DNA from: an uncultured Gammaproteobacteria bacterium
Lineage (GTDB): Bacteria > Patescibacteriota > Patescibacteriia > UBA9570 > XYC2-FULL-38-9
Length of the DNA: 64,000 nucleotides
Assembly: GCA_964344485.1 (NCBI GenBank)
Contig: CAYFNF010000001.1
Coordinates: forward strand, 186,115 to 250,114
Direction: 5' to 3'
Of this stretch, positions 1 to 58,411 are shown piece after piece. Made by a program: the position numbers and the translations under genes. A model generated the notes under the pieces. The model was not told the origin of the DNA and ran no database searches. It saw nothing but the letters and a program-made list of their open reading frames with translations. Positions within the stretch are counted from its first letter, which is position 1. Each line of letters starts with the position of its first letter.

Positions 1-729
1 GATTACCCGCTGGGGCTGCAATTGGTCACTGATGAAGAGATCGGGGGATTTGATGGCACAGGGTATCAGGTGGAGAAAGGTGTGCGCTCAGAGTTTGTTA
101 TTGCGGTTGAAGCCACGAATTTTGATATCGTAAATAAAGCAAAAGGAATTCTATGGGCTAAGGTTTCTGCAACAGGGAAAACCGGCCATGGAGCGCATCC
201 GTGGAATGGTGAGAATGCTATTTGGAAGATGCACAGTTTCTTACAGGCGCTACAGAAGAATTATCCGGTTCCGAAAAAGGAACAATGGGCGACTACGGTT
301 AATCTCTGTGACATAGGCACAAGCAACCATGCATATAACAAGATTCCTGACGACTGTATGGTCGGTTTGGATGTCCGTTTTATTCCCGAAGACACTAAGA
401 CGATCCTGCCGAGTATAAAGAAGTTACTGCCAAAAGGTTCCACACTCGAGGTTATTACAAACGAACCCGCGTTGTTAGTTGACAAAGACAATGATCATAT
501 TACACTGTTGCGGAACGCTGGACGGAGTGTCTTGAAAAAGAGCATGAAATTACGTGGAGCTCAAGGATCATCTGATGCACGACACTTTACTAAAGTGAAC
601 TGCCCAGGGATTGAGTTCGGGCCAGTTGGCGCTGGAATCGGTAGCGACAAGGAGTGGGTCAGTATTTCAAGCTTAGAACAGTTCTACTATTTACTAGCCG
701 AGTATCTCACGGCGTTACATACTAAATAA
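1..729 (+). CDS. M20-family metallopeptidase (ArgE/DapE-like), C-terminal part; 5' end lies outside the window
   Basis: The reading frame is open from base 1 with no stop (DYPLGLQLVTDEE...). It carries the M20 motif GKTGHGAHPWNGENAI and a typical C-terminal dimerisation/catalytic region. Confidence 0.7.
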   Translation, partial: DYPLGLQLVTDEEIGGFDGTGYQVEKGVRSEFVIAVEATNFDIVNKAKGILWAKVSATGKTGHGAHPWNGENAIWKMHSFLQALQKNYPVPKKEQWATTVNLCDIGTSNHAYNKIPDDCMVGLDVRFIPEDTKTILPSIKKLLPKGSTLEVITNEPALLVDKDNDHITLLRNAGRSVLKKSMKLRGAQGSSDARHFTKVNCPGIEFGPVGAGIGSDKEWVSISSLEQFYYLLAEYLTALHTK

Positions 730-747
730 CCTATTTAAATTAACAAC

Positions 748-1509
748 ATGGCAAAAAAAGAGATTAAACAGCGCAAAGATTTACGCATTCTACTTGTTCA
801 GATGCGTGGTGATGAAACTAAGCAGCATGAGATGGACTGTTTATTACGATACGGACATCTTGAGCCTGAGCAATTAATCTCTTATGATGCGTTAACTGAT
901 TCGGTGACCAATGACATTATCGAGGGTATGGACGCGGTGATTGTTGGGGGCGCAAACGAATTTCGAGTGTCGCACAAGGACTTTCATCAACTAGAAGAAG
1001 TAGAGGAGTTGGTTCGACACTGTACAGAGAAGAAAATTCCATTACTTGGCATTTGTTACGGAGCACATGTGATTGCAGAGGCGCTCGGTGGAACCGTGGA
1101 GTACACCCCGGATCGTAAAGAAGTGTCTAATCATGTCATGACCTGCATGCCAGCAGCTACGGATGACGAATTGCTGTATGACATGCCAAAGAAATTTAAA
1201 GCAAACTGTGGACGAACCGACAATATTATCAGTATTCCTGAGCATATGATTCACTTGGTGAAGTCTGAATTATCTGAATACCATATCTTCCGTGTTCCTG
1301 AGGCGCCAGTTTATGCAGTCCAGTTTCACGCAGAGTTGTGTAAGAAAGATGAGTGGACGCGTATGGACTTTGCTCATGCACATGGTGGGTACTTTAAGGA
1401 CAATGAAGACTTGCAGAATCAGAAAGATAAGATTGTAAAGACTCCTGAGGCAACGAGTTTAATAGAGAAATTTGTTGATCGAATAGTGCTTCCAGCTGTG
1501 AATTCATAG
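748..1509 (+). CDS. Class I glutamine amidotransferase-like protein (COG0518/GuaA-N-like), paralog 1
   Basis: N-terminus has LRILLVQMRGD. The Cys nucleophile sits in LLGICYGAHVIAEALGG and the His in VQFHAEL. Length is ~250 aa. Confidence 0.75.
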   Translation: MAKKEIKQRKDLRILLVQMRGDETKQHEMDCLLRYGHLEPEQLISYDALTDSVTNDIIEGMDAVIVGGANEFRVSHKDFHQLEEVEELVRHCTEKKIPLLGICYGAHVIAEALGGTVEYTPDRKEVSNHVMTCMPAATDDELLYDMPKKFKANCGRTDNIISIPEHMIHLVKSELSEYHIFRVPEAPVYAVQFHAELCKKDEWTRMDFAHAHGGYFKDNEDLQNQKDKIVKTPEATSLIEKFVDRIVLPAVNS

Positions 1510-1744
1510 CCTGCGCATCGTTTCTACTAGACCCATTAGTAGATTTTTCCACATTTTTTCGAAAAACCCTTGACTTATGACGATCATTATTATAGAATTT
1601 TGCAAACGTTAAATAACGTACAAACGTAATGAACTCAGTGACACATACAATACAGAACTGTTTCGAGCTAATTATTAGCCTGATTGTCCTTATTCGTAAG
1701 GGTGGGTTTTTGAGTGCTAGGTAAACGTATTTACACATTACTCA

Positions 1745-1770
1745 AAAGCCCGCCACTCGGCGGGTTTTTT
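1745..1770 (+). terminator. Rho-independent terminator
   Basis: Hairpin gcccgcc-actc-ggcgggt followed by tttttt. Confidence 0.6.
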
Positions 1771-2049
1771 CATTACGTGATTGAGCCTCTCGCAGTACTC
1801 GTTCGGACTATAAACCCGGCTTGCGCCGGGCCAACCGTCCTTCACGAGCACTGCTGCGGCTCTCATGAAATGAATAACCTCACTGTACATGTAGAAATAC
1901 GTCTACAGTGGCACATTGAAAAGTGATTGATGTCAGATACTCTTGTCGATCTGGCGGTTCGTAGGAGGAGAGCGAGCCGCCGGACTGGCAAGAGTATCCT
2001 TCCCCAAGATGGGGAGTAACAGAACCGCGCTGCTGTGAAAAGGAGAGAC

Positions 2050-3351
2050 ATGAAGCGGATTCTGATCGACGCGGTCCAAGAGGATTGGCCGCACCTGCGA
2101 GATGTCGACGCGATCGAAGCCTACTGGAATCGACCGCTGATGTTCGGAGAAGACTGCGTGGTGGTGGTCCACGCGAGCCAGGAGGACGAAGAACTGCAGC
2201 AGCTGCTGCACGACTACGGAACCATGGGCATCGGGCCCGCCGAAGTCATCTACGTCACGCCGCGAGGCAGAAGCTTCTACCAGGACATCCTGGCTGACAC
2301 CGACGCCATGGCGCGGATTCGCGCTCTGATGGCCGAAGGCGCCAAGCTGGACCTGTTCTGTGCTTCGCTCGAGGCGATCAAGTTCGTGGAAGCCGCTGGC
2401 TTCAAGTGGGACACCGACACGCTCAACCCTACCCCGGATCTGTACGCCCTACTGGCCAACAAGGCCGCGATGCGCGAGATGCTGGTGGAGGCCGGACTTC
2501 ACACCCTGGTACCGCCGCACGTGCTCGTGCGAACCGAAGCCGACCTGCGACAGTGGGTCACCTACTTCGGAGAGAACGGTGAAGGCGACGGAGTCTGTGT
2601 GAAGCGCCCGGACGGCGCGAGCTCGGAAGGGCAGGTGTTCCTGCGCAAGGGCGATGCGCCCGACGAGTTCCTCCGTACCCACTTCGATCCAGAGCTCCGC
2701 ATCATCGTGGAGCCCGCGTACGAGCACATCCCGTTCTCCGTGGTCTACGACCTCACCGGAAGCGAGGCTCGACTCGCGTACGGTTCCCTGCAGTGGCAGG
2801 GGCGTCACACCCGGCTCGGTGATCGCATCACCATGAGGCACCTGGTCGACAAGGACCTGGATCACCGCGCGAACATGGTGGGGTCCACCGGAATGGACCT
2901 GGGACCGCTGGCATGGCGCCAGATCGAGAGCGCGGCTGTCGCGTACGAGCCGGTCATGGGCCGGATCTACGAGATGGGCTACCGCAGCCAGATCTGTGCC
3001 GACATGCTCGGCGTGAACCCCATGATGGCCCTCGGGTCGGAGTTCAACCCCCGTCGTGCGCACAGCAACTTCCCGGCCGCTGTCCAAGCAGCACTGGAGT
3101 CCCGCTTCGGTGGGGAGATCGTGGTCCTGGCGACCAACGTCGAAGTACACCCTTCGGTGAACTCGTACTCCGCTGCTCGTTCTCGCGTGTCGCACCTGTG
3201 CGACGGAACCTCGCCCTCGGGCGTGCTGTTCTACCACACCCCCATCCTCCCCATCATGCCCAAGTGCGGGCTGATCTGCTGCGGACGCAGCTTCGAGGAG
3301 GTGCGGGAGCACTGCGAGACGGCTGAGGCCGAACTGCAAGCTGCCGCGTGA
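2050..3351 (+). CDS. ATP-grasp superfamily enzyme (carboxylate-amine ligase-like), high-GC foreign-looking gene
   Basis: GC is about 60-65% versus ~40% in the flanks. An SD (AAGGAGAG) lies 8 nt before the ATG at 2050. ATP-grasp-like blocks include NKAAMREMLVEAGLHTLVPP, VCVKRPDGASSEGQV, IVEPAYEHIPFSVVY and GVNPMMALGSEFNPR. The antisense ORF 2449..3339 is a GC artefact. Confidence 0.6.
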   Translation: MKRILIDAVQEDWPHLRDVDAIEAYWNRPLMFGEDCVVVVHASQEDEELQQLLHDYGTMGIGPAEVIYVTPRGRSFYQDILADTDAMARIRALMAEGAKLDLFCASLEAIKFVEAAGFKWDTDTLNPTPDLYALLANKAAMREMLVEAGLHTLVPPHVLVRTEADLRQWVTYFGENGEGDGVCVKRPDGASSEGQVFLRKGDAPDEFLRTHFDPELRIIVEPAYEHIPFSVVYDLTGSEARLAYGSLQWQGRHTRLGDRITMRHLVDKDLDHRANMVGSTGMDLGPLAWRQIESAAVAYEPVMGRIYEMGYRSQICADMLGVNPMMALGSEFNPRRAHSNFPAAVQAALESRFGGEIVVLATNVEVHPSVNSYSAARSRVSHLCDGTSPSGVLFYHTPILPIMPKCGLICCGRSFEEVREHCETAEAELQAAA

Positions 3352-3510
3352 GCGGCAACGGCGAAGCTGGGCGGGCCTACCGAAGCACCACTACAGGACA
3401 TCGCATCAACGACATCAGTCCTTCGGGGTGAGCACCACACTCGCCCCTCCCCATTTTTTTCAACAACCCCGCGTCTGAGCGGTTCATATAAACATGATAT
3501 AATAATCACT

Positions 3511-4278
3511 ATGCCCGAAATAGCATCAAAAAAAACACGCGATCAAGTGAAGATTCGAGTCATTCACTTTCGAAGCGATCCAGTCATACAAAAGATGGAG
3601 TTTGATAGTTTTGTACGTTTTACAAAATTACGACCAGAGCAGCTTGTTGTGCATAACGCATTAACCGACCCAGTAACTACTGACCTGATAGATGGATTCG
3701 ATGGATTACTCATCGCCGGCGGTGGAGATGTTCGTGTTACCGAGGAGCTACCGTTTTGGGAGCCGGTGCGAAAGTTGTTGCGCCATGCGTATGAAATTAA
3801 TTTTCCAACGCTTGGAGTCTGCTTAGGCATCCAGTTAGCAGCACAAGAGTTCGGTGGAAAGCTCACGAGTGACAAGAAGTACTTCGAAACCGGAACCTAT
3901 CCAATGTACTTAACAGACGCAGCAAAGAACGATCCGATGTATCAAGGAATTCCAGAGATATTTAATGGACAGATGGGGCATAATGATACAGTAATTGAAA
4001 TACCAGCAGAAGCTGTTCATCTCACCTATAGCGATAGGTCAAAATATCAAGCGTTCTGCTTTCCCGGGAAGAAGATGTACTTCACGCAGTATCATCCTGA
4101 GTTAGACGAGCACCAGTTGCGTGAGCGTCTGTATTATTATGAAGAGCATTACGCAGATAACAAAGAAGAGTTTCAAGCCATCCTGAACACACTGCAAGAC
4201 TCCACTGATGCGTCTCTCATACTAGAACGGTTTGTTGATGTGTTGGTGCTTGATTCTGAAGCAGTTTGCGGAATGTAG
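3511..4278 (+). CDS. Class I glutamine amidotransferase-like protein, paralog 2
   Basis: Shares the same architecture as 748..1509: IRVIHFRSD, FVRFTKLRPEQL, TLGVCLGIQLAAQEFGG and TQYHPEL. Confidence 0.75.
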   Translation: MPEIASKKTRDQVKIRVIHFRSDPVIQKMEFDSFVRFTKLRPEQLVVHNALTDPVTTDLIDGFDGLLIAGGGDVRVTEELPFWEPVRKLLRHAYEINFPTLGVCLGIQLAAQEFGGKLTSDKKYFETGTYPMYLTDAAKNDPMYQGIPEIFNGQMGHNDTVIEIPAEAVHLTYSDRSKYQAFCFPGKKMYFTQYHPELDEHQLRERLYYYEEHYADNKEEFQAILNTLQDSTDASLILERFVDVLVLDSEAVCGM

Positions 4279-4331
4279 GAATACTTGTTAGTATCACGTC
4301 TATAATTAAATTAGTTTTTTTCAATACACAG

Positions 4332-5102
4332 ATGTCACAGCCAAAGAAACGGGAGGATGTACGGATTCTCCTTTTACAATTCCGAGAGGACCCATTTATT
4401 AAGAAGCAGGAGTTTGATCAATACGTACGGTTTACGAAACTTCGCGCAGATCAGATTGATGTCCTAGATGCATTAACAGAGACAGTTACAAATGACTGTG
4501 TCCATGGGTATAATGGAGTCATAGTGGGTGGAGTTGGACATATATTCATCAGCGACAACGCTCCGTTTCAAGAACCGGTACTCGAGTTAATTCGCTATTT
4601 ACTCGAACAGAACATTCCAACGCTCGGAATCTGTTTTGGCGCACAACTTGCTGCACTGGCGTTAGGCGGTACAGTAGAGCGAAAGCCAGAGATGTTTGAG
4701 TACGGAACGTATCAGATGTATTTAGAGGATGAAGCGAAGAACGATTTGATGTTCGACGGTGTACCATCTCCTTTTAATGGACAGATGGGGCATAAAGATT
4801 CTATTACTGAGCTACCTGAGGGTGCCGTGCGCTTAACGTATAGTGATGCATGTCCAAATCAAGCGTTTTACTTCCCCGGAAAGAAGTTTTATGTTGTGCA
4901 GTATCATCCGGAGCTAGATGAGAAAGGGCTAAAAGATCGTTTAGCGTATTATCGTGACCACTATGCTCGAGATGAGAAGCAATATCAAGAGCTGCGAGAC
5001 CGTATTACCGACTCTACTGACGCATCAAAGATTCTAGAGCGGTTTATCGACGTGCTCGTGCTTGACGAGCCAGCGCAACAGAGCGTAAAAGATCAGAAAT
5101 AA
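4332..5102 (+). CDS. Class I glutamine amidotransferase-like protein, paralog 3
   Basis: Carries VRILLLQFRED, YVRFTKLRADQ, TLGICFGAQLAALALGG and VQYHPEL. About 50% identical to paralog 2. The start is taken at ATG 4332; the upstream extension in the ORF track overlaps paralog 2. Confidence 0.7.
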   Translation: MSQPKKREDVRILLLQFREDPFIKKQEFDQYVRFTKLRADQIDVLDALTETVTNDCVHGYNGVIVGGVGHIFISDNAPFQEPVLELIRYLLEQNIPTLGICFGAQLAALALGGTVERKPEMFEYGTYQMYLEDEAKNDLMFDGVPSPFNGQMGHKDSITELPEGAVRLTYSDACPNQAFYFPGKKFYVVQYHPELDEKGLKDRLAYYRDHYARDEKQYQELRDRITDSTDASKILERFIDVLVLDEPAQQSVKDQK

Positions 5103-5468: not shown

Positions 5469-5515
5469 GTGTATAAAAAAACGCGCTGTGGCTCAGCTCG
5501 CTGTAGAGCGAAGCG

Positions 5516-6058
5516 TCATGAACCCACGCGCGTGCGTGTGAACAGCAGATGCGAGTTGCCGGACCAGAGGCGCTGGTAGCGACCCATGGGTCGATCCATG
5601 GAGCAGTAGGAGTAGTGCTCGCGCAAGTGTCGACGACCGCCAGTTGGTGACATGACGTGGATCACTGGGAAGGAGGTCTGGATCTGACCGACCTTGCCAG
5701 CGTCGTACGGTCTGCTGTTGAACGGGGAACCGAGGGCGAGCACCCCAGGGTCGTCATCATCTTCGTCGTAGACCCGGGTGACCAGGTCCCATGCGATCAG
5801 CTCCCACATGTTCGCCGGTCGGAACCCCCTGAGCCCTGTTGAGATCAGGAGTTGCTCAATGGGGACAGAGCCTGCACATCCGTACGGGGTCTCGCGAACC
5901 CGTACCAGGAAGAAGTCGCCGGGCCGTCCTGGCTGCATCAAGATCTCTGCCATGTTCTCCGATGGCCGCAGTCGGCGTGGTAGTCTGGTCGTGCTGCCGA
6001 GGTCCAGACCGAACGGGATGTTCAGCCGGAGTATGACCGTAAGCAAGCTGCTTACCAT
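5516..6058 (-). CDS. Hypothetical protein (high-GC island gene 1)
   Basis: High-GC ORF. ATG at 6058 is preceded by a perfect SD (AGGAGG, 9 nt spacing). The longer ORF reaching 6124 would start at GTG without an SD. No family recognised. Confidence 0.5.
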   Translation of the reverse strand: MVSSLLTVILRLNIPFGLDLGSTTRLPRRLRPSENMAEILMQPGRPGDFFLVRVRETPYGCAGSVPIEQLLISTGLRGFRPANMWELIAWDLVTRVYDEDDDDPGVLALGSPFNSRPYDAGKVGQIQTSFPVIHVMSPTGGRRHLREHYSYCSMDRPMGRYQRLWSGNSHLLFTRTRVGS

Positions 6059-6074
6059 TTTGCTAATCCTCCTA

Positions 6075-6313
6075 AGAGGTGCTTCATTGCGAATGATGCA
6101 CCCATGAGTAGATCTTCGCCCCACTCATTCATGCACCATGTTGTAAAAAAACGAGCACAATGTTCGAAACCCTATTCACATTCTCGCGTCTGCTGAGGTG
6201 AAGAGGAGAACACTATGCTCGTGTTTCCAGCGTATGATACGACCGCTCGGTGTCGTTAGTAGTTTTTCTTCTATTTGCGGCTTCTTCTTACCATGAGATT
6301 GCATGATCGTCAA
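6075..6313 (-). promoter_or_regulatory. Promoter-like element plus structured attenuator-type 5' leader, copy 1
   Basis: Minus-strand reading: TTGACG, 17 nt, TAAGAA. Then an AACAC-GAGCAUA-GUGUU hairpin. Then a 12-bp stem ACGAGCAUAGUG/CAUUGUGCUCGU followed by UUUUUUU. About 70% identical to the copy at 7081..7295. Confidence 0.45.
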
Positions 6314-6364
6314 GCCTTTCTTGCGGTTGATATTGATGTGCAGTACAATCACTCAGAGGTATAT

Positions 6365-6435
6365 GCGGGATTAGTACAATGGTAGTACATCTGCTTCCCA
6401 AGCAGGAGACGCGAGTTCGATTCTCGTATCCCGCT
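6365..6435 (+). tRNA. tRNA-Gly (anticodon CCC)
   Basis: Full cloverleaf. Acceptor GCGGGAT/ATCCCGC, D-stem GTAC, anticodon arm TCTGC-TTCCCAA-GCAGG, T-arm GCGAG-TTCGATT-CTCGT. CCA is not encoded. Confidence 0.85.
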
Positions 6436-6468
6436 CAATCAATGAGACAATAAAAAAGCCGTGGTTGG

Positions 6469-7080
6469 TTACCAGGGCTGTTGCACTTCGGTCGCGTCCT
6501 TGTACGCCTGGTGCAGCTTGGTGAGCCATCCTTCGTCGCCGATTGACAGCGCGCAGAGCAGGACGATCACGATCAGCAGGATGCCCACTGGGAGCAGCAG
6601 GACCACGTCATTTCGCGGCTGACGGGATTGCGGTTGGCGCCACCCCATCACGCACCGCGCTTTCCGGTTTTCCACCATGGACGCGGCACCAGCCAGTAGA
6701 TCACCACCAGCAGGACCAGGGCCGGAAGCACGCGGTAGGTGTCGTTGGCGTGGGTCCACTCGGCCCGTGAGCGCGGTGAAGAGCGCGAAGTCGGTCTGGC
6801 GGATGACCCACCGGATCGCGCGCTTCTGGGCATCCAGCGTGTTGTAGGACGGCTGGTCGCGGAGGGCGCTGGTGCGAAGCATGTCCATGTGGTCCATCAG
6901 GACCACGCCGTTCACCCGCGCGTAGATGTGCACGCAGAGCACGAACAGCAGGACGCCCGCACAGGCTAGGGACTGGATGAACACGAACTCTGGGGAGCCG
7001 TGCACCACACAGTACGCCAGGTCCACGAACGCGCCGAACGCGAGGACGCGACTGAGGTATGCGAAGGTTCGCATGTTCAC
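6469..7080 (-). CDS. Hypothetical membrane protein (high-GC island gene 2)
   Basis: High-GC ORF with hydrophobic N-terminal helices (FAYLSRVLAFGAFVDLAYCVV, LACAGVLLFVLCV). Start is ambiguous between GTG 7080 and ATG 7074. The overlapping antisense ORFs are GC artefacts. Confidence 0.5.
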   Translation of the reverse strand: MNMRTFAYLSRVLAFGAFVDLAYCVVHGSPEFVFIQSLACAGVLLFVLCVHIYARVNGVVLMDHMDMLRTSALRDQPSYNTLDAQKRAIRWVIRQTDFALFTALTGRVDPRQRHLPRASGPGPAGGDLLAGAASMVENRKARCVMGWRQPQSRQPRNDVVLLLPVGILLIVIVLLCALSIGDEGWLTKLHQAYKDATEVQQPW

Positions 7081-7295
7081 CTCGTGTTGGAGTTGATTCC
7101 GTGCTAACGAAATGTGCAGTTTCGCAAAACACGGGCATGCTGTTCAAAACCCTTCTCACTTCGGTAGCGAAGTAGAAGGAGAACACCATACCCGTGTTTC
7201 CGAGCGCTTCTGTTACGGCGGCTCAGGTCACCGTTGTGTTGATAGCACTGAATTGTCGAACAGCTGTTTGTACCATAGTGAACGCTCTTTGTCAA
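7081..7295 (-). promoter_or_regulatory. Promoter-like element plus structured attenuator-type 5' leader, copy 2
   Basis: Minus-strand reading: TTGACA, 17 nt, TACAAA. Then an AACAC-GGGUAUG-GUGUU hairpin. Then a stem ACACGGGUAUGGUG/CAGCAUGCCCGUGU followed by UUUU. Compensatory changes relative to copy 1 preserve the pairing. Confidence 0.45.
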
Positions 7296-7355
7296 CGCTA
7301 TATTCTTATCTCGGTATTTCTGATACAGTAAATAGGTAATAAGTAAGATACAACT

Positions 7356-7697
7356 ATGGCACTATTTCGTTATGCAACCGGGAAGGAGCCGTATTACATT
7401 GAAGCAGGATGGCCGCGGGGGAGTACGTATAAAAAAAGCCCAACCACTATTCGAGTAACAAAAAAAGACGAGCAAGGAAAGTATGTGATGGTCCAGGATC
7501 TTGGAGAAGTGAACTATGAAAAAGAAAAAGCTGAACACGGGTGGCATTTTTCAGCTGAGCAGTTAGGTGATATTGAATTAAAGATTGTGAAGCGAGCACT
7601 ACTGTTTACAGAAGTACAAGTATTCTTGAATGGGGAGAAGTTGAAAGGCAGTGAGATACTCTCAACTGCAGCTGGAGAGGTCGGGAGATACTCGTAA
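7356..7697 (+). CDS. Hypothetical protein
   Basis: Low-GC 113-aa ORF. No recognisable domain and no clear SD. Confidence 0.35.
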   Translation: MALFRYATGKEPYYIEAGWPRGSTYKKSPTTIRVTKKDEQGKYVMVQDLGEVNYEKEKAEHGWHFSAEQLGDIELKIVKRALLFTEVQVFLNGEKLKGSEILSTAAGEVGRYS

Positions 7698-7715
7698 TAA
7701 TCATACTTCATAAGA

Positions 7716-7741
7716 CAGTCGCAGGTGTGCGGCTGTTTTTT
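7716..7741 (+). terminator. Rho-independent terminator
   Basis: Hairpin cagtcgca-ggtg-tgcggctg followed by tttttt. Confidence 0.45.
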
Positions 7742-7800
7742 GTATCCATTGACAGACCTATTCTATTCCTGCATCATAACAGTTCTGTTTGGAGACGCGC

Positions 7801-8169
7801 ATGATAGTGTTGAGAGGGAGTCGAGAGACAGCAACCGCAGCGTTCATCGCTCTGGGATGGAAGGTCCGGGGGAGTCCCCCTGAAGAGCTACCTGATGGTA
7901 CGACACTGCATCCCGTGCACAGCAACGGTGAGGCAGCAGTGGGCAAGGTCTGCATCACGAGTGGACGGCCCCAGACCGCGCAGCGCTTCTCGCTTCCGCA
8001 AGGAGCCGCGATCTACGTGCTCAAGGGGGTGCTCAAGCTGAATGGAGAGACGTACACCGCCGGTACCCTGATCTGGATCCCGGCATCTGGCGCGTTCAAC
8101 GTCGACACCACCCGTGAGTGCACACTCGGGGTGTTCTACCCCGCACTGCCCGGACTGACCGGACCCTGA
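7801..8169 (+). CDS. Cupin-fold-like small protein (high-GC)
   Basis: High-GC ORF. GGAG lies 7 nt before ATG 7801. Beta-rich and cupin-like: GAAIYVLKGVLKLNGETYTAGTLIWIPASGAFNV. Confidence 0.45.
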   Translation: MIVLRGSRETATAAFIALGWKVRGSPPEELPDGTTLHPVHSNGEAAVGKVCITSGRPQTAQRFSLPQGAAIYVLKGVLKLNGETYTAGTLIWIPASGAFNVDTTRECTLGVFYPALPGLTGP

Positions 8170-8440
8170 GCCATGCTGCTGTTGATGCACCGTGTTCCGT
8201 GACATGATCGGACCGCGGATTTTTTTATTCTAATGCCGCTACTCGCTTAACCCTACGTGATACCAGTCTCGCTTCCTCCGCTTCGGCTTTACATGACTGT
8301 TCTCAATTCCTGTAACGCACGCTTCGCGTGCTTTCCTTTGCGTGTTGATTTTTCGTTATCCGTGTCTTTTGCGCAGCCTTCAGGCTTCGGTGCGCTGCGA
8401 ATAGTATCACTTCGGGTGTCGCTTGTATCGCTTCTTGAAT

Positions 8441-8471
8441 AAAAAAACGGCGATGTCTTACGAGATCATCG
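8441..8471 (-). terminator. Terminator for the minus-strand gene ending at 8492
   Basis: On the minus strand, hairpin CGATG-atctcgtaaga-CATCG then CCGUUUUUUU, immediately after the stop. Confidence 0.4.
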
Positions 8472-8491
8472 TCCGCGTGAGCATGTGCGCA

Positions 8492-8980
8492 TCAGTGGAC
8501 TGCGTCGTCTGGTCCGGCGGTGGTACCGGTCAGGATCGAGCCCTCAGGCCCGATTCGATGGCGGAACTCGGTTCCGGGTGATGCAGAGTCCACGATCGCT
8601 TCCATGGGATCGTCAGCAGGCCACGGGCGAGTCGCTTGGTCTCCGCGTTCGCGAGCCAGCTGGATCTCCAGCGGTGGCTCGGGTGGCAGATGGTTCACGA
8701 TCGCGCTCGTGAGGCGGCTCACCAGTTGCGCATACTGCGGCTGTGGAAGTCGGCTCTGGAAGAAGGCCTGCAGTGCAGCGGCCTCGGGTACGCTGTGAGC
8801 TTCGGCGATCTGCCGCACGGTCCCACCCGGGAGCGTTACGACGATGTTCACCGCCGCGTGACAGCACGGGCAGAGTTGCACGTCCAGCGTCACCTGAGCG
8901 AGCCACTCTCGTGTGTAGTACTCCGCGCCTTGTTCGTAGCACAGCACATGCTCAAGGTTCACCTCGTCACAAGTTGCCAA
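8492..8980 (-). CDS. Hypothetical Cys/His-rich protein (possible zinc-binding), high-GC
   Basis: Probable TTG start at 8980 with SD AAGGAG 8 nt upstream. Carries HVLCYEQ...CPCCH. The coding region is high GC, but its promoter region (8981-9070) is AT-rich. Confidence 0.45.
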   Translation of the reverse strand: MATCDEVNLEHVLCYEQGAEYYTREWLAQVTLDVQLCPCCHAAVNIVVTLPGGTVRQIAEAHSVPEAAALQAFFQSRLPQPQYAQLVSRLTSAIVNHLPPEPPLEIQLARERGDQATRPWPADDPMEAIVDSASPGTEFRHRIGPEGSILTGTTAGPDDAVH

Positions 8981-9137
8981 TAGAATTGCTCCTTTGGACA
9001 GGGTTTCGTGAGTGAGGATAGCCCTACTTGTAATATATATTAGATAATATTGCAAGTGTGTATAACGCAAACAGTGCCCGTGCGCTTTAATTTAAACGTG
9101 GTATACTGATAAGGAGTTAAGTAATAAAGACAAAACC

Positions 9138-10949
9138 ATGAGAAAAACGATCCTTGTTCTCAGTACCGGGTTGTTTCTTTTATTGATGCAACCTGTGAGC
9201 GCTGAGACCGCACCGATCACTCTAGACGGCGACATATCAGACTGGGATGACGCTGGTATAGAGAGCCTTATTACCGACACTACCGGAGAGGTAGTTGGGA
9301 CTGATTGGTGCTATAACAACGCTACTTCCCAGTGGGAGGAGAAAGCTGAGAAAGATTGCGGCTCATTATTTGTGAATCAAGAGTTGTTTTTAGACATTGG
9401 AGACTTTCGAATGACTCATGATTCTACATTGATGTACGTTGCGCTGGAGTCAGCCGCGCCAATTATGGGCGTGAAGGTTCTAGATCCAACGAGTTTGGAT
9501 TACGGTAAATATCTACCGTTTGGATATCCATTAGATTGGGATGGTTCCGGCCCACCAGAAAAGTTTATAGCAGGAGCGCCTAGAGCGTTTGACCACTCTA
9601 TGGTGATCTGCTTTGACTTAAATCAGGATGGAATTGATGACCTATTTGCGAGAACGAATTTTCAATGGGAAGAAGGTATGGTTGGCACTGAAACCGGAGA
9701 AGGCATGACTATCATGCACTATCTGTATCAAGATGATGGTGATGGAGAGTACACGCCAAGTACTGATACACTCTTAGAGGAAGAAGAAGACAATCCTGTC
9801 GGTGTTTCATCTGATTCCTTTGATGCGAGTGAAGGGTTGTCAGCAGTCACTGAAGTTTCGGACGAGCTAGAGAGCTTTGAACTTCTAATTGGCGAAACAG
9901 TGAATGTGCATGTAGAGATGTGGTCATCCCTTGCTGACGAGACTGAGCCAGTGGAGTACACCTTCACAGAGTATATACCTGAGAAGATCACCGGGTTAAA
10001 AATAAACGACCCACTACCGCATCGACTCAGCTATGTGAACCTTACATGGGACGCAGATGATTCAGCTGCTACGTATGACATTCAACTATTGAAAAAGAAC
10101 GGTACGGTTTCACAGAGCCTAACATCAGCTACAAATAGTAAAAAGATAAAGAAGAAGTATCTTGTCGCGAATAGCGCAAGAAAAGTGAAGGTCCGAGGCG
10201 TCACCGGCGCTGGAACTCCTGGAGAGTACTCTGATACTAAGACGTTCTATGTTCCACCGGCAATGCCTCGCAATCTTCAAGCAAAGCGCGTCGGTCCAAC
10301 TACTGCAGTACTTGATTGGGTTGCACCAAAGAGGCACGCAAAGCTCAAACACTATAGAGTTATTCTATACAAAGGGAAGAAGGCCGTTCGAAGGTTGAAT
10401 GTGAAAAAGACGCAAAAGTTGGTTCGAAACTTAGATCCATCCAGCAAGTACTCCTTTAAAGTACGAACTGTGCGAAGAACTGGAGTATCAAGTAGGTGGT
10501 CTAAGAAGAAATCATTTACCACTATGGGGCCAGTACAGTATGTCAAGATCGAAGACATGACTCGAGTGGCAGATGATGACCTGAAACCTGGCGCGGATAT
10601 TGATGCATTGGTACTCAATCAAGAAGACGGGACCAAGTATTACGCAGACATGATCCCTGATCGGTACATTCCGATCTCCAGTGGAGATGATGACCCAGCA
10701 GAGATGCTCGGTATGCCAGACTATTCAGTAGATACAGACTGGGGGTACACTTCTTTGGGTGGAGTTGGCGGATATGCAGTGATCAAGCTAGAGCAAGCCA
10801 TGGATAAGGACTCTAAGAATCTAGTCATTCGTGAACTGCGCACAGTCTCTAAAGTCGGGGATGCTTATAAAGTCTACTTTTCTGAATCAGAGCTAGGCCC
10901 ATGGACATTCATTGGTCGCCACTCTGGCCGCGCAATCATTGGGTTATAA
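9138..10949 (+). CDS. Secreted protein with fibronectin-III-like/Ig-like domains and a Lys/Arg-rich region
   Basis: Signal peptide MRKTILVLSTGLFLLLMQPVSA|ETAP. Fn3-like segments include PRNLQAKRVGPTTAVLDWVAP. Confidence 0.6.
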   Translation: MRKTILVLSTGLFLLLMQPVSAETAPITLDGDISDWDDAGIESLITDTTGEVVGTDWCYNNATSQWEEKAEKDCGSLFVNQELFLDIGDFRMTHDSTLMYVALESAAPIMGVKVLDPTSLDYGKYLPFGYPLDWDGSGPPEKFIAGAPRAFDHSMVICFDLNQDGIDDLFARTNFQWEEGMVGTETGEGMTIMHYLYQDDGDGEYTPSTDTLLEEEEDNPVGVSSDSFDASEGLSAVTEVSDELESFELLIGETVNVHVEMWSSLADETEPVEYTFTEYIPEKITGLKINDPLPHRLSYVNLTWDADDSAATYDIQLLKKNGTVSQSLTSATNSKKIKKKYLVANSARKVKVRGVTGAGTPGEYSDTKTFYVPPAMPRNLQAKRVGPTTAVLDWVAPKRHAKLKHYRVILYKGKKAVRRLNVKKTQKLVRNLDPSSKYSFKVRTVRRTGVSSRWSKKKSFTTMGPVQYVKIEDMTRVADDDLKPGADIDALVLNQEDGTKYYADMIPDRYIPISSGDDDPAEMLGMPDYSVDTDWGYTSLGGVGGYAVIKLEQAMDKDSKNLVIRELRTVSKVGDAYKVYFSESELGPWTFIGRHSGRAIIGL

Positions 10950-10966
10950 TCCACCATGTTCAGTAG

Positions 10967-10995
10967 AAGGCGCTCTTCATTGAGCGCTTTCTTTG
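10967..10995 (+). terminator. Rho-independent terminator
   Basis: Hairpin ggcgctc-ttcatt-gagcgct followed by ttctttg. Confidence 0.5.
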
Positions 10996-11008
10996 TTATA
11001 CTAGCACT

Positions 11009-11647
11009 ATGAAACGACAAGATCGCGCAGCAGTAGTCTTGAAGCGCTTGCGAACAAGTACTGACAAGAACAGTGAGTTCATTCAGTGGAGTACACCACT
11101 CGAGTTAGTTGTGGGCGTGGTGCTTTCAGCGCAGTGTACTGATAAGCGGGTGAACATGGTCACTAAAGAGCTGTTCAAGAAATACAAGACTGCAGCAGAC
11201 TATGCAAACGCTCGATTGCAGACCTTAGAAAAAGAGATCAAGTCCACAGGATTCTATAAAGCTAAAGCCAAGTACTTAAAAGGAATCGGACAAGTATTAA
11301 AACAGCGTTTCAACGGCGCTGTTCCAGACACACTCGATCAAGTACTGCAACTGCCAGGCGTGGCTCATAAGTCCGCGTATATTATCCTCTCAAAAGTGCA
11401 TAATGTTCACGAAGGCGTTGCTGTAGATACCCATGTGCGACGCGTGGCTCCGCGACTTGGTCTGAGCAGACACTCCGAACCAAATATGATCTCAAAAGAT
11501 CTTTCTAAACTATATAAACCGAAAGAATATCCTGAAATAAATGAGTTACTGATCATACACGGACGCAATACCTGCAAACCGAAACCCCGCTGTACCGAGT
11601 GCAAACTCCAAGACATGTGCCCAAGCGCAAAGCGTTTTTCTGCGTAA
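11009..11647 (+). CDS. nth: Endonuclease III (HhH-GPD DNA glycosylase with 4Fe-4S cluster)
   Basis: HhH-GPD motif LPGVAHKSAYIIL. C-terminal cluster ligands C-x6-C-x2-C-x5-C (CKPKPRCTECKLQDMC). Confidence 0.8.
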   Translation: MKRQDRAAVVLKRLRTSTDKNSEFIQWSTPLELVVGVVLSAQCTDKRVNMVTKELFKKYKTAADYANARLQTLEKEIKSTGFYKAKAKYLKGIGQVLKQRFNGAVPDTLDQVLQLPGVAHKSAYIILSKVHNVHEGVAVDTHVRRVAPRLGLSRHSEPNMISKDLSKLYKPKEYPEINELLIIHGRNTCKPKPRCTECKLQDMCPSAKRFSA

Positions 11648-11714
11648 ACAAGGGGTGTTTGCACGGGAACGAAAAATGCGCTATTATAGGATACTAATTA
11701 TTTAACGTATTTAT

Positions 11715-12278
11715 ATGATACGGATTAATGAGGTTGTCCCTGATGTGGAGTGTGAGGCATATCATGAGGATGACATTAAAACAGTGAACCTCGCAGATTT
11801 TCGAGGCAAGTGGGTAGCGCTGGTGTTCTATCCAGCAGATTTTACATTTGTCTGCCCTACTGAATTACAAGAGCTCGCTGCACTCTATGAAGAGTTCAAA
11901 CAGCTTGATACAGAGATTCTCTCTGCCAGCACGGATACTGCGTTTGTACACAAAGCGTGGCATGATAATTCAGAGGCGATCAGCAAGATTCAATTTCCAA
12001 TGCTTGCGGACCCGTCTGGAAAGCTTGCAAGAATCTTCGGTACGTACATTGAAGATGAAGGGCTCGCACTACGCGGAACATTCATCATCGATCCTGATGG
12101 AGTATTGAAAGCGTATGAGATCAACAACAACGATATCGGACGCAGTGGAAAAGAGCTGCTCCGCAAGGTACAAGCAGCGAAGTTTGTGCGCGAGAACGGT
12201 GGAAACGTCTGTCCTGCAGGATGGCATCCGGGAGATGATACGCTGAAACCAGGTTTGGACCTAGTCGGTAAAATATAA
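11715..12278 (+). CDS. ahpC: 2-Cys peroxiredoxin (AhpC/Tsa family)
   Basis: Peroxidatic Cys in FTFVCPTEL and resolving Cys in VCPAGWHPG. Confidence 0.85.
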   Translation: MIRINEVVPDVECEAYHEDDIKTVNLADFRGKWVALVFYPADFTFVCPTELQELAALYEEFKQLDTEILSASTDTAFVHKAWHDNSEAISKIQFPMLADPSGKLARIFGTYIEDEGLALRGTFIIDPDGVLKAYEINNNDIGRSGKELLRKVQAAKFVRENGGNVCPAGWHPGDDTLKPGLDLVGKI

Positions 12279-13892: not shown

Positions 13893-14147
13893 TTATACAG
13901 CTTTTATCATGATCAGCCGGTATGCAGGACCGATGCCAGTAAAGAACAAGTAGACCACGAGAATAATAGCGATTGCAATTAAACTATCTGTTATCCGAGT
14001 TTTTGCTTCTTCTTCTTTCTTTTTATCTCCTTTGTGTGTATAGAACTCGAATGCGCCCAAGATAATGAGCAATACTGCAACAGCGATCACCACGCCAAGG
14101 ATGATCTTAATTAACAGTAGTATCATTGGAAATGTTTCTGTTCCCAT
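13893..14147 (-). CDS. Possible small two-TM membrane protein
   Basis: 84-aa ORF MGTETFPMILLLIKIILGVVIAVAVLL...IAIAIILVVYLFF. No SD. It overlaps the alternative N-terminal extension of the FG-GAP gene. Confidence 0.25.
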   Translation of the reverse strand: MGTETFPMILLLIKIILGVVIAVAVLLIILGAFEFYTHKGDKKKEEEAKTRITDSLIAIAIILVVYLFFTGIGPAYRLIMIKAV

Positions 14148-50715: not shown

Positions 50716-50931
50716 ATGAGCAGATGCTCACAGGACGGAGGAGTGCACGGAACCGCGCGCTACATGCCCGAGACCCCGGCCGAGGCGTTTGCGCTCGGTC
50801 TGACGCTGGTGCTCAGCGACATGGCCAAGCCGTTCCGCGGCATCGGTCGTCGGGCCAAGCGCTTCGCGAGCCTCACGCGTCTTCCGCTGGCGCTCTGGCG
50901 CTGCCGCGTCACCCGCACTCACCGTTCGTGA
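50716..50931 (+). CDS. Small hypothetical protein in high-GC mini-cassette
   Basis: 71-aa ORF with a strong SD (GAGGAGG) 7 nt upstream. ~65% GC against ~40% flanks. Arg-rich C-terminus. Confidence 0.3.
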   Translation: MSRCSQDGGVHGTARYMPETPAEAFALGLTLVLSDMAKPFRGIGRRAKRFASLTRLPLALWRCRVTRTHRS

Positions 50932-57427: not shown

Positions 57428-58411
57428 ATGGCCTGTTCTTTCTCGCCAACCCCATTGAGGAGGTACGCATTGAAAGAGGAAACGACAGGGCGTTCTATCG
57501 TCGTGACCGGGGGATCGAGAGGAATCGGTTGCGCACTGGTGGAGTTGTTCACCGAAGCAGGATGGAGGGTCGCAGCGCTCGCGCGCTTCTCTGAGACAGA
57601 CGGTGAACCACCGGCGGACTTCCCCAGAAGAGTGATGCCCATGCGGTTCGACGCAGTGTCGACTGTGGCCGACGTCTACGGCATTCATCACACCGCAGTG
57701 GGTAACATCGAGCCGGTTCTGGACACGGTTCTGGAGTGGAACCACGGGAGGCTGCCCGAGGTCGTGGTGCTCAACCACGGTACGGCTGCTGCGCACGAAG
57801 ACGCATTCAGCGCGATCTGGTTGCTGATCCTCAACCTGGTCAGCAAGGTGATGATCACCTACCGGCTGATCCAGCTCTGGGAAGAGCAGCATCGTCCACC
57901 CCTCACGGTCTGCTACATGGGTAGCTACATGGAGCGGTTGCCGCTGTTCGGCGCCAACCAGTACTCGCTGACCAAGGCCGCGCTGGCTCTGCTGGCGTAC
58001 CGACTCCGTCGGCAGTACCGAGGCACCACGCTGCACGTGATGCACGCAACGCCGGGAGTGGTGCGGACCCAGATCTGGGACCACCAGGACAACATGCAGC
58101 CGTGGTTCAGGACCATCATGCTGGCTCTCGCGACACCGGTCGAGGTCTGCGCGCGCAACATCATGCACGCCATCCTCAAGCGCAAGGCGTGCTCGCGGCC
58201 GACCATGGATGCGAAGCTGGTCTTCATGCCACTCGTGGGCCGACTGACGGTTCCGGTGTACAACATGCTCCGGTACCTCGGGTACAGTCCGGAGGAAGTC
58301 TACGAGGAGTGGCTGGCCAAGCGGCTCTACGGCACGCGCTGGTTCTACCGGCTCGTACAGTCCATCATGATCCGCATCGCAGGACGAATCGAACGCCAAC
58401 AGTCCGAATAA
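57428..58411 (+). CDS. Short-chain dehydrogenase/reductase (SDR) family oxidoreductase, high-GC foreign-looking gene
   Basis: Cofactor motif VVTGGSRGIGCAL. Catalytic YSLTK (YxxxK). GC about 60% or more. The fully overlapping antisense ORF 57413..58423 is a GC artefact. Confidence 0.7.
   Translation: MACSFSPTPLRRYALKEETTGRSIVVTGGSRGIGCALVELFTEAGWRVAALARFSETDGEPPADFPRRVMPMRFDAVSTVADVYGIHHTAVGNIEPVLDTVLEWNHGRLPEVVVLNHGTAAAHEDAFSAIWLLILNLVSKVMITYRLIQLWEEQHRPPLTVCYMGSYMERLPLFGANQYSLTKAALALLAYRLRRQYRGTTLHVMHATPGVVRTQIWDHQDNMQPWFRTIMLALATPVEVCARNIMHAILKRKACSRPTMDAKLVFMPLVGRLTVPVYNMLRYLGYSPEEVYEEWLAKRLYGTRWFYRLVQSIMIRIAGRIERQQSE

Follow-up and report, generated by a model that had tools for sequence, protein, structure and literature searches.

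Scattered GC-rich single genes in a low-GC chromosomal segment of Candidatus Kerfeldbacteria

Four GC-rich genes at 5475-8980 of the window (the whole 64,000-nt stretch of DNA that was analysed) belong to a scattered set of at least seven GC-rich single genes, designated A, B, C, D, E, F2 and G, in a backbone of Candidatus Kerfeldbacteria (Patescibacteria/CPR). The reading that we favour, at slightly less than even odds, is that these are independent, monocistronic accessory genes scattered in a core chromosomal segment, not a tRNA-integrated island, and that the genes themselves are persistently GC-rich. On this reading, their composition would be a lasting gene property and not the fading trace of a recent actinobacterial transfer.

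Composition and layout of the GC-rich patches

A two-state HMM placed the backbone of the window at 43.6-44.6% GC and delimited three high-GC segments within 5476-9070, H2 (5482-6029, 62.4% GC), H3 (6458-7057, 65.0% GC) and H4 (7816-8929, 60.5% GC), in agreement with the abrupt GC rise described in the first-pass annotation. That annotation had read the region as one contiguous island. However, the patches were separated by backbone DNA, both at 6030-6457, which holds tRNA-Gly(CCC) (44.6% GC), and at 7058-7815 (43.8% GC). The latter carries a native low-GC gene between H3 and H4 (7356..7697, + strand, 113 aa, GC3 0.40), and the supposed island is thus broken by backbone DNA. Nor was the pattern peculiar to this locus or to tRNA-Gly, since the HMM found three further patches elsewhere in the window, H1 (1953-3452), H5 (50667-50965) and H6 (57483-58406). 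No sequence similarity was found between patches.

GC3 was 0.70-0.80 in genes B, C, D and E versus 0.30-0.50 in all of the ~58 backbone genes of the window, bearing out the compositional difference that had been proposed. The ~65 genes fell into two classes, at 0.65-0.82 and 0.30-0.50, with no intermediates, and the GC shift of the patch genes is far above chance expectation. The patch genes deviated at GC1, GC2 and GC3 and in amino-acid usage, with K/(K+R) of 0.08-0.36 versus ~0.5-0.9 for most backbone genes, and are compositionally foreign. They shared a common codon dialect (RSCU r = 0.67-0.88) of a generic high-GC type.

The compositional edges matched CDS or terminator edges in 7/7 units. 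GC was lower (0.50-0.61) in the 5' UTRs, SDs and first ~12 codons, every one of the seven units was closed by an L-shaped terminator with T6-8, and none of the seven patches had collateral donor DNA around its CDS. High GC is limited to the coding sequences; promoters, SDs and terminators are native-looking.

Genes and elements within 5475-8980

Genes B, C, D and E are genuine coding genes. All four ORFs lay where the first-pass annotation had placed them, each with an SD and a terminator of a hairpin plus T6-8, and the stop-free antisense ORFs that it had noted were indeed open. Strong codon periodicity was seen in the patch genes, and a codon model, trained on the other patch genes and then scored per frame and strand (LLR), selected the frame and strand given here for B, D and E. 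Gene E had been singled out for its native-looking, AT-rich promoter region; this description fitted E but was not unique to it, as all four genes have low-GC, native-looking upstream DNA. The term "domesticated" proved apt, in that patch genes were joined to native-type expression signals.

Gene B (5516..6058, - strand) is a 180-aa ORFan (GC 61%, GC3 0.74) with an SD, AGGAGG, 8 nt 5' of its ATG, and GC climbs only ~10 codons inside the CDS. The ORF is also in the public annotation (P0010), and the codon model gave LLR +20.0 for this frame and negative values for all remaining frames. Searches of Pfam, NCBIfam, PHROG, PADLOC, PDB, plasmid and viral sequences gave no match. Its intrinsic terminator (5475..5515, - strand), a GC hairpin plus T7, forms the left edge of H2 (HMM boundary 5482).

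As had been reported, tRNA-Gly(CCC) (6365-6436, + strand; ARAGORN; Rfam 69.1 bits) lies between the ORFs; it sits in DNA of backbone composition between B and C, converging on C. Gene C (6469..7074, - strand; P0007 in the public annotation) is a 201-aa ORFan (GC 64%, GC3 0.80) with the SD GAGGTG, for which ATG 7074 is a more likely start than the GTG at 7080 proposed earlier. Judged by eye, its product looks like a membrane protein. The stop codon of C and its terminator (a hairpin with T6) overlap, at a distance of 33 bp from the 3' end of tRNA-Gly.

Gene D (7801..8169, + strand; P0011 in the public annotation) encodes 122 aa (GC 62%, GC3 0.70) and is preceded, within low-GC DNA, by a promoter-like TTGACA-N17-CATCAT and the SD GGAGA; its terminator lies at ~8190-8226 (T7), and its codon-model LLR was +10.3. 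The product is tentatively a small cupin, a probable assignment that draws on a Pfam Cupin_7 match (E=0.028) and an AF2 model with a beta domain at pLDDT 73-83, for which the top PDB matches in Foldseek were almost all cupins (TM 0.4-0.5).

Gene E (8492..8980, - strand) is a 162-aa ORFan with a TTG start (GC 64%, GC1 and GC3 each ~0.71), the SD AGGAG, AT-rich DNA upstream and a terminator at ~8441-8475 (T7). The codon model scored it at LLR +21.4 versus +4.4 for the top opposite-strand frame. It is absent from the calls of the public annotation and is the least certain gene model.

Between the convergent terminators of D and E lies a non-coding spacer (8227..8442, 54% GC). Its minus strand was unusually well folded (z = -3.82, equalled by 0/200 shuffles; plus strand -1.0), which makes the spacer a candidate small RNA or 3' UTR extension. 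It had no Rfam match at E<=1 and no copy among the fetched loci.

Family A and the patches outside this interval

Gene A (patch H1, 1953-3460; CDS 2050-3351, + strand; 433 aa, GC3 0.82) has a GC-rich leader of ~95 nt and a terminator at ~3424-3460, and is tentatively an ATP-grasp-like ligase. It is flanked by a low-GC M20 peptidase (22-729) and three low-GC GATase/C26 paralogues (748-1509, 3511-4278 and 4266-5102). Family A, the only patch family having relatives, comprised five members from 5.8e9 clusters and JGI metagenomes, with a mutual identity of 42-48%. The homologues P0002, P0003 and L085 were each a GC-rich gene in low-GC surroundings. In 4/4 retrievable contexts the gene was 58.5-64.5% GC (GC3 0.72-0.84) and the backbone 36-46% GC, and uniformly GC-rich contigs yielded no member. 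Low-GC neighbours recurred beside A, the GATase/C26 in the window and in L004 and the M20 peptidase in the window and in L002. A GC-rich partner gene adjoined A in L002, L004 and L085 (homologous between L004 and L085, E=2e-17), separated from it by spacers of 398-958 bp at a backbone-like 38-47% GC. Gene GC tracked backbone GC in the family, across just four cases. The GC-richness of family A was shown to persist across four different low-GC genomes, a pattern not accounted for by simple recent gene transfer.

Gene F2 (patch H5; 50716..50931, + strand) is a 71-aa basic ORFan (GC3 0.81, SD GAGGAGG, terminator 50932-50974) placed between dnaB and tRNA-Lys; it was missing from the dnaB/tRNA-Lys gap of the relatives L005-L009. 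Gene G (patch H6; 57470..58411, + strand; 313 aa, GC3 0.81) has a TTG start after the SD GAGGAGG and a terminator at 58412-58433, and lies 188 bp upstream of tRNA-Asn. The public annotation has an antisense ORF (57413-58423, P0012) in its place. Its matches to Pfam adh_short (9.3e-14) and an NCBIfam SDR model solidly predict a short-chain dehydrogenase/reductase (SDR). Overall, the patch genes likely encode small-molecule enzymes and small proteins, B, E and F2 having no assigned function. H5 and H6 are the patches with testable synteny, and the genes of both were missing from the closest Kerfeldbacteria relatives. The patch genes are thus lineage-specific accessory genes and were therefore gained at some point.

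The patch junctions are real, as independent contigs cross them at 100% identity. The independent ENA contigs L088 and L089 were 100% identical at the native gene 7356-7697, L089 runs 40 bp into H4, the independent ENA contig L091 spans dnaB into F2, and L001 begins 27 bp within H1. No polymorphism was found among the ENA contigs. We consider it very improbable that the patches reflect chimeric assembly or binning contamination, or are GC-rich non-coding structured RNAs instead of genes. Fragmentary ENA contigs from this organism did often stop close to the edges of patches, RNA genes can appear as GC-rich islands where a genome is AT-rich, and the spacer 8227-8442 is well folded. However, L091, L089 and L001 crossed junctions independently, the family A architecture recurred in four unrelated assemblies, and the only Rfam matches were tRNAs. 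Codon periodicity, the SD-linked SDR domain of G and the choice by the model of one frame per patch likewise argue for genes.

Origin and maintenance of the GC-rich composition

No integrase, transposase or RT was found. There was no att site or TSD, flanking direct and inverted repeats were at chance level, and no fragment of tRNA-Gly(CCC) of >=11 nt was repeated within 1-12 kb, the att-like repeats suggested for the tRNA 3' end included. Adjacency of patches to tRNAs was not above chance (P~0.13-0.18), and an island organised on tRNA-Gly was not supported. No dedicated tRNA for patch-gene codons was identified; GGG usage was little different (RSCU 0.54 vs 0.75), and tRNA-Gly(CCC) is therefore not implicated. 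The patches resemble integrase-mediated, tRNA-associated genomic islands in being compositionally atypical accessory genes near tRNAs in variable regions. They differ in lacking an integrase, a duplicated tRNA 3' fragment and an att repeat, in being single genes parted by native DNA with no contiguous block, and in that 2/3 tRNA-adjacent patches lie on the tRNA 5' side. Integron gene cassettes are likewise single-gene accessory units, inserted singly, but each patch unit carries a promoter and an intrinsic terminator of its own, and the units lack an attC-like conserved 3' element, a common 3' motif, an integron integrase and an array.

No close homologue of any patch protein was found in databases of billions of proteins. 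The sole match of gene C among 5.8e9 clusters was itself, an exhaustive HMMER search with gene E of 1.84e9 representatives gave repeat-protein artefacts only, and the top database match of gene G had just 30% identity. Genes B and E had no plasmid matches, and no viral relatives of patch genes were found. The actinobacterial or other high-GC donor envisaged in the first-pass annotation was thus not identified. Homologues of the same composition, which that annotation had held would count against acquisition, exist for family A; the four genes of the interval are without homologues.

Recent, independent transfer from unsampled GC-rich donors, such as an actinobacterial host of an epibiont, with the genes still unameliorated and promoters replaced or recruited locally, is a serious rival, albeit one that we consider rather unlikely. 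The composition at three codon positions and the use of Arg over Lys fit a ~60-68% GC genome, and the codon dialect is the generic high-GC one. The shift in GC1, GC2 and amino acids fits foreign origin and is less natural under pure codon selection. The patch genes are lineage-specific and occupy variable intergenic gaps, and their absence from the closest relatives is as recent gain would predict. The sole detectable relatives of gene G (27-30% identity) lay in uniformly 64-71% GC contigs, one of them adjoining a mycobacterial-type Rv1486c-like gene. Against such transfer, no donor-grade homologue turned up for the tested patch genes among 5.8e9 clusters and 1.84e9 representatives, even though sampling is far denser for GC-rich bacteria than for CPR. 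The family A contexts were low-GC in 4/4 cases; their neighbours, likewise low-GC, were conserved, and the spacers had backbone-like composition. The edges of 7/7 patches were CDS-confined, the SDs and T-run terminators were native in style, and integrase, att site and TSD were lacking. Gene exchange is known in CPR bacteria, but among 125 aquifer Patescibacteria genomes the inferred donor was Actinomycetota in 1 event versus Patescibacteria in 109 (PMC12455944).

As in the Lawrence-Ochman framework of transfer and amelioration, the patch genes deviate in GC and codon usage on the scale of single genes, are patchy among close relatives and have ORFan character. Acquired genes are mostly AT-richer than the host genome (PMC2671203), as is also generally held, whereas the patch genes are ~19 GC points richer. 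They further differ in that no donors were found, in that family A remains GC-rich in four low-GC genomes where its GC-poor neighbours are conserved, and in showing no amelioration signature: for the well-supported genes, GC3 implied a genome GC similar to or higher than the values from GC1 and GC2, and the L011 gene joined a GC3 of 0.85 to backbone-like GC1/GC2. Low-GC Lawsonia intracellularis also has a minority gene class with GC3 well above the rest of the genome, reported as putative alien genes and read as horizontally transferred from correspondence analysis only, a precedent that favours transfer here (PMC2671203). That organism belongs to another phylum, and there is no evidence there for CDS-confined edges, native expression signals or cross-genome GC persistence (PMC2671203).

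Isolated, non-homologous GC-rich ORFan genes were also found at other CPR loci (L011, L026, L010, L006, L017 and L036), and no comparably strong patch was found in non-CPR control loci. Patch GC did not track backbone GC across a small sample of genomes (r=0.38, p=0.11). Local GC-biased gene conversion, in which patch genes are recombination hot spots and biased mismatch repair pushes GC upward, for example as divergent alleles are swapped via natural transformation, appears improbable. It would accord with a shift that spans three codon positions and amino-acid composition, with the variable regions in which the genes sit and with the L011 gene, which, like conversion-driven genes, combines backbone-like, low-GC-type GC1/GC2 (0.54/0.39) with GC3 of 0.85. 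However, conversion tracts would ignore CDS edges, so the sharp, CDS-confined edges count against it; GC remains at backbone level in immediately adjacent genes and in spacers of 400-960 bp, and the ENA contigs lack polymorphism. Moreover, recombination is reported to shift bacterial GC3 by a few percent, not by +35-40 points.

Each unit consists of a low-GC promoter and SD of native type, then a CDS whose GC reaches 60-65% (GC3 0.7-0.8) a few codons past the start, and lastly a canonical hairpin plus T-run terminator. By analogy, we infer that the four ORFan genes obey the rule of family A, as they share its window, anatomy and codon dialect. Under the favoured reading of persistent GC-richness, some force on the coding sequence or mRNA would hold GC high in low-GC Patescibacteria. 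Our leading guess at its nature is selection on nucleotide content, synonymous and overall, which would set translation rate or mRNA stability, perhaps for low-level or conditional expression. We know of no established mechanism that keeps gene-specific GC-richness in bacteria. In bldA/TTA regulation in Streptomyces and in tRNA-modification-tunable transcripts of mycobacteria, genome-rare codons let translation gate expression, and this is the kind of mechanism that might maintain the GC-rich dialect. Such regulation depends on a single specific codon or a small number of them, together with a known tRNA or modification, whereas here the whole CDS and its amino acids are shifted.

Gene-sized high-GC patches and their coding status

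The 64-kb window has a very uniform backbone of ~44% GC, from which a two-state HMM separated six sharply bounded high-GC segments: H1 (1953-3452, 64% GC), H2 (5482-6029, 62%), H3 (6458-7057, 65%), H4 (7816-8929, 60%), H5 (50667-50965, 68%) and H6 (57483-58406, 62%). GC at third codon positions (GC3) fell into two separate classes, 0.30-0.50 in the ~58 backbone genes, including the ribosomal-protein operon at ~26.6-36 kb, and 0.65-0.82 in the seven patch genes, with no gene in between. With these two classes and the sharp HMM edges, the abrupt rise in GC described in the first-pass annotation is real and far beyond chance. That annotation had proposed a horizontally acquired island around tRNA-Gly(CCC) at 5476-9070. 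Its four ORFs were present as described and the tRNA was confirmed at 6365-6436; however, the proposed island was not contiguous. It resolved into three separate segments, H2 to H4, divided by backbone sequence at 6030-6457, where the tRNA lies, and at 7058-7815, which holds a native gene (7356-7697, GC3 0.40) between H3 and H4.

Relative synonymous codon usage (RSCU) of the patch genes correlated with that of the backbone at only -0.1 to -0.25, and their codon dialect was of a generic high-GC type. Amino-acid usage was also shifted, with K/(K+R) values of 0.08-0.36. A composition and codon usage atypical of the genome favor recent transfer from unsampled GC-rich donors, the main rival explanation, as does the amino-acid shift, which foreign origin predicts. 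A shift at all codon positions also fits local gBGC.

Patch genes displayed strong three-base periodicity (GC3 > GC1 > GC2), with the exception of gene E, in which GC1 was close to GC3. A codon model trained on genes A, C and G favored a single frame in each small patch: minus for B, plus for D, minus for E (log-likelihood ratio +21.4, versus +4.4 for the best opposite-strand frame) and plus for F2. The resulting genes, each preceded by a Shine-Dalgarno sequence (SD), are A in H1 (2050-3351, plus strand; ATG start, SD AAGGAG), B in H2 (5516-6058, minus; ATG, AGGAGG), C in H3 (6469-7074, minus; ATG, GAGGTG), D and E in H4 (7801-8169, plus; ATG, GGAGA; and 8492-8980, minus; TTG, AGGAG), F2 in H5 (50716-50931, plus; ATG, GAGGAGG) and G in H6 (57470-58411, plus; TTG, GAGGAGG). 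The public annotation concurs on A, B, C and D, and for F2 an independent ENA contig has a matching gene call. No tested form of gene E (8492-8980, minus) appears in the public annotation. At G, that annotation places an antisense ORF (57413-58423, minus, 336 aa; protein P0012) instead of the plus-strand gene, and P0012 is a typical high-GC antisense-ORF miscall.

The possibility that the patches are GC-rich structured non-coding RNA was rejected given the strong codon periodicity and Rfam searches, at gathering thresholds and at E<=1, that returned only tRNAs, three in the window. These results rule out a non-coding RNA explanation. All-against-all blastn detected no DNA similarity between patches, and the idea that they are copies of one element was likewise rejected. 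Between the convergent terminators of D and E lies a 215-bp non-coding spacer (8227-8442, 54% GC), the minus strand of which folds far better than shuffled sequences (z = -3.8; 0/200 as good). Excess folding was confined to this spacer, which matched nothing in Rfam and recurred in none of the fetched loci. It may represent a small RNA or the extended 3' UTR of E.

Unit anatomy, mobile elements and assembly

All seven patch genes were monocistronic. GC was low or intermediate (0.50-0.61) upstream of each gene, at its SD and over its first ~12 codons, except that A carries a ~95-nt GC-rich leader 5' of its SD. Beyond those codons, GC was high throughout the rest of the reading frame and on into a hairpin with a T6-T8 tail in all seven units. 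Thus, the compositional edges coincide with the edges of the coding sequence (CDS) and the terminator. Sharp CDS-limited edges do not fit local gBGC, which we consider improbable. The individual SD and terminator ascribed to each island ORF were seen in all seven patch units; the expression signals were of the native low-GC type, and collateral foreign DNA was absent.

None of the patch ORFs or neighboring ORFs matched an integrase, transposase or reverse transcriptase (RT) in Pfam scans. The att-like repeats that an island at tRNA-Gly might have left were also lacking, with no tRNA-Gly fragment of >=11 nt found elsewhere in the 1-12 kb region, and for every patch and patch combination the longest flanking direct or inverted repeats did not exceed the 95th percentile of the null. 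A tRNA-integrated genomic island is characterized by an integrase, attL/attR repeats of the tRNA 3' end and a contiguous foreign block, none of which is present here, and this origin is ruled out. All three tRNAs of the window adjoin a patch gene, with tRNA-Lys next to H5 and tRNA-Asn next to H6. However, there are 22 intergenic gaps of >=100 bp and a patch gene borders 11 of them, giving P ~0.13-0.18 for tRNA adjacency, and a role for tRNA genes as insertion hot spots was dropped given so few large gaps. The units also differ from integron cassettes, which are promoterless, end in attC and require a nearby intI; the patch 3' ends share only generic hairpin and T-run terminators, and the units own their SDs and promoter-like regions. 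RT-mediated conversion was dropped because the expected 3'-to-5' gradient of GC3 occurred only in G and D and was flat in A, B, C and E. Adenine depletion resembling that of DGRs was dismissed as well, since the coding-strand AT skew of the patches resembles that of backbone genes.

The same organism was found in two other assemblies (ENA ERZ930068/ERZ930070, PRJEB17505), solely as 0.6-1.5-kb contigs that are 100% identical to the window. Four of these contigs, L001, L088, L089 and L090, correspond to window positions 3425-4333, 7097-7783, 7259-7856 and 10620-11745, and a fifth, L091, carries part of dnaB together with F2. Patch junctions were crossed at 100% identity by the independent contigs L091, L089 and L001, which excludes chimeric assembly; an assembly artefact is ruled out. 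Several ENA contigs end within ~40 bp of patch edges, perhaps through a GC-dependent loss of coverage or through variation among strains at the patches.

Protein relatives and the search for a donor

Gene G encodes a short-chain dehydrogenase/reductase (SDR; PF00106, adh_short, 51.8 bits against a cut-off of 26.6, E 9e-14) in which VVTGGSRGIG fits the Rossmann TGxxxGxG motif. It had generic SDR matches in NCBIfam, beyond which defence-system, phage and NCBIfam profiles (PADLOC, PHROGs, NCBIfam) returned nothing. D had a sub-threshold Pfam match to Cupin_7 (E=0.028), and the top Foldseek matches of its single-sequence AF2 model, a model of modest quality (mean pLDDT 54.7; 73-83 in the beta domain), were cupins (TM 0.4-0.5, E~2e-3). 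Matches of A to PreATP-grasp (E=0.036) and to the ATP-grasp peptide ligase 8ynd in the PDB (E=0.81) were also weak, the former being sub-threshold, and its AF2 model from three sequences (pLDDT 51) was too poor for a fold search.

Among 5.8e9 clusters, C matched only itself, the best match of G was 30% identical, and A had two relatives at 42-47% identity; one further relative of A (45% identity) was recovered from JGI metagenomes. An exhaustive search of E against 1.84e9 representatives returned only artefactual multi-repeat matches, and its two matches there were rejected as homology, being summed weak matches to tandem-repeat proteins. For B and D, the comparison covered PDB sequences, viral contigs and profile libraries, with plasmids added for B. 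B, D and E matched PDB sequences only at E >=0.5. Viral contigs held no relatives of A, G or B and only cupin-level matches of ~35% identity to D; plasmids in PLSDB gave no tblastn match to B or E.

Distant relatives of G (27-30% identity) were located in contigs of uniformly 64-71% GC, one of them beside an Rv1486c-like gene. Such low identity cannot indicate recent transfer, and the GC-rich contexts may stem from the word prefilter of the search, which is sensitive to composition. Had an un-ameliorated gene come in recently from a well-sampled GC-rich phylum, close relatives would be expected, and none were found. The suggestion of an actinobacterial or other high-GC donor was not borne out: C matched only itself, E had no relative, G reached at most 30% identity, and the relatives of A, at 42-48% identity, all lie in low-GC contexts. 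These data rule out an identifiable actinobacterial donor. The lack of close homologues in the large-database searches with A, C, E and G likewise weighs against recent transfer from unsampled GC-rich donors. Horizontal gene transfer (HGT) into Patescibacteria has been reported to come mostly from other Patescibacteria, with Actinomycetota a rare donor (PMC12455944).

DnaB was 74-78% identical to that of Candidatus Kerfeldbacteria metagenome-assembled genomes, and gene order around dnaB was kept in five comparison loci (L005-L009). F2 was absent from the gap between dnaB and tRNA-Lys in all five, a gap of only 578 bp in L008. Both H5 and H6 were absent from the syntenic position in L005-L009; the syntenic data cover these two patches. 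The block at ~56200-62950 comprises a gene for a 432-aa hypothetical protein, the SDR gene G, tRNA-Asn and, among others, a gene (58766-60439) for a secreted protein of BNR/sortilin-like type. L008 and L009 lack this block and have its flanking genes side by side, so that it is a variable region. The seven patch proteins had no tblastn match in 80 related loci, and a search of GTDB genomes for close relatives through the GATase gene found no match. Collectively, these data support the view that each patch gene is an accessory unit of its own, lineage-specific and equipped with native signals.

Family A in four low-GC genomes and the proposed persistence of GC-richness

In all four retrievable contexts of family A, comprising A and its homologues on L002, L004 and L085, a GC-rich gene was situated in a low-GC backbone. 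Gene GC and GC3 were 64.3% and 0.82 in the window (backbone 44%), 64.5% and 0.84 in L002 (46%), 58.5% and 0.72 in L004 (36%), and 62.6% and 0.79 in L085 (43%). A GC-poor GATase/peptidase-C26 gene, with the same Pfam signature in both, adjoins A in L004 and, as three paralogues, in the window; the window and L002 share a GC-poor M20 peptidase gene next to A. A second GC-rich gene also adjoins A, encoding GCS2 in L002, while the partners in L004 and L085 are homologous to each other (E=2e-17). The spacer between partner and A (398-958 bp) falls back to 38-47% GC. This neighborhood of mixed composition (window 22-5102; L002 1786-5625; L004 2514-6705; L085 3228-5971), with M20, GATase/C26, A and the GCS2-like partner, is suggestive of a gamma-glutamyl or peptide ligase/hydrolase module, GC-rich in its putative ligases and GC-poor in its putative hydrolases.

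Spacers at backbone GC between genes whose synonymous sites remain at 0.7-0.84 are not expected of a block brought in from a GC-rich donor, nor would separate imports into four genomes be expected to end up next to members of the same GC-poor families. Homologues of the same composition in other genomes, an outcome that the first-pass annotation itself counted against its reading, were found for family A, a patch outside 5476-9070. A GC-rich family beside GC-poor neighbors in four low-GC genomes also counts against recent transfer from unsampled GC-rich donors, which we regard as unlikely. Purine-rich leaders of ~100 nt with hairpins precede all four family-A genes (window 1953-2049; L002, L004, L085); a conserved structured leader or shared riboregulator was dropped as RNAalifold gave no consensus pairs. 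L004 also encodes, at 1720-2100 and 13932-16705, a 23S_rRNA_IVP protein and a PrgI/TraC-like/VirB4-type type IV secretion cluster, which fits a putative Patescibacteria-type conjugation-like system.

Isolated GC-rich genes were also present on other CPR loci fetched with dnaB, none homologous to the patch genes of the window and none with a Pfam match. These included a 191-aa ORFan on a Patescibacteria contig (L011, 4399-4974; GC3 0.85, backbone 39%) and a gene in L026 (13772-14596; GC3 0.90, backbone 36%), with further examples in L010, L006, L017 and L036. No comparably strong patch was detected in ~40 non-CPR control loci, a comparison of small numbers. In the L011 gene, GC1 and GC2 were backbone-like (0.54/0.39) and GC3 was 0.85, so that GC-richness is restricted to synonymous sites, the reverse of the amelioration signature. 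By the Lawrence-Ochman comparison, the genome GC implied by GC3 was at least the mean of that implied by GC1 and GC2 in 10/19 genes, a split that gives no support to an intrinsic process; in the genes that are long and reliable, there was clearly no decay of GC3. Within family A, patch GC tracked backbone GC (r=0.995, with n=4 only); across ten genomes with exact CDS coordinates the correlation was not significant (r=0.38, p=0.11), and this argument for an intrinsic process was dropped.

We tentatively favor, at a little under an even chance, the interpretation that high GC persists in this gene class of low-GC Patescibacteria as a feature of the CDS. It would be kept up by selection for particular nucleotides or codons, most plausibly for the sake of expression control, or else by a biased process as yet undescribed. 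By analogy with family A, we infer that the four ORFan genes B to E may behave in the same way, and the nature of the maintaining force is likewise our inference. A broader generalization, which we hold to be doubtful, is that Patescibacteria carry a distinct class of accessory genes, most of them ORFans, in a second, GC-rich "dialect," actively maintained in CDS over deep time within AT-biased genomes. Such a dialect might reflect selection for mRNA or codon content by which expression is gated, or an undescribed, targeted GC-biased process.

Compositional heterogeneity and atypical accessory genes are known already; a maintained second dialect, should this rather unlikely proposal prove correct, would be new and undescribed. 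In the literature searched, no description was found of CDS-confined, evolutionarily persistent GC-rich genes in CPR. Acquired genes are as a general rule AT-rich, GC-rich putative alien genes in Lawsonia being an exception (PMC2671203). Gene-sized GC anomalies are routinely taken as recent HGT and, for uncultivated episymbionts, used to name donors and hosts. In the present case this interpretation did not survive its own tests, with no donors, no integration machinery, CDS-confined edges and a family that is GC-rich in four divergent genomes. If the pattern is general, composition-based inference of HGT and hosts in CPR genomes would be misleading, these genes would form a systematic exception to the rule that acquired genes are AT-rich and ameliorate to the host, and bimodal GC3 in tiny genomes would offer a tractable entry to selection or biased repair acting on nucleotide content. 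Were the dialect real, gene-level base composition would be a regulated, heritable trait and not a footprint of origin. A practical consequence is that gene callers mis-annotate these genes, as with G on the wrong strand and E uncalled.

One gene of backbone composition (21612-24572, minus, 986 aa) was unlike its neighbors in having an unusually high GC1 (0.65) and an Arg-rich product with K/(K+R) of 0.21.
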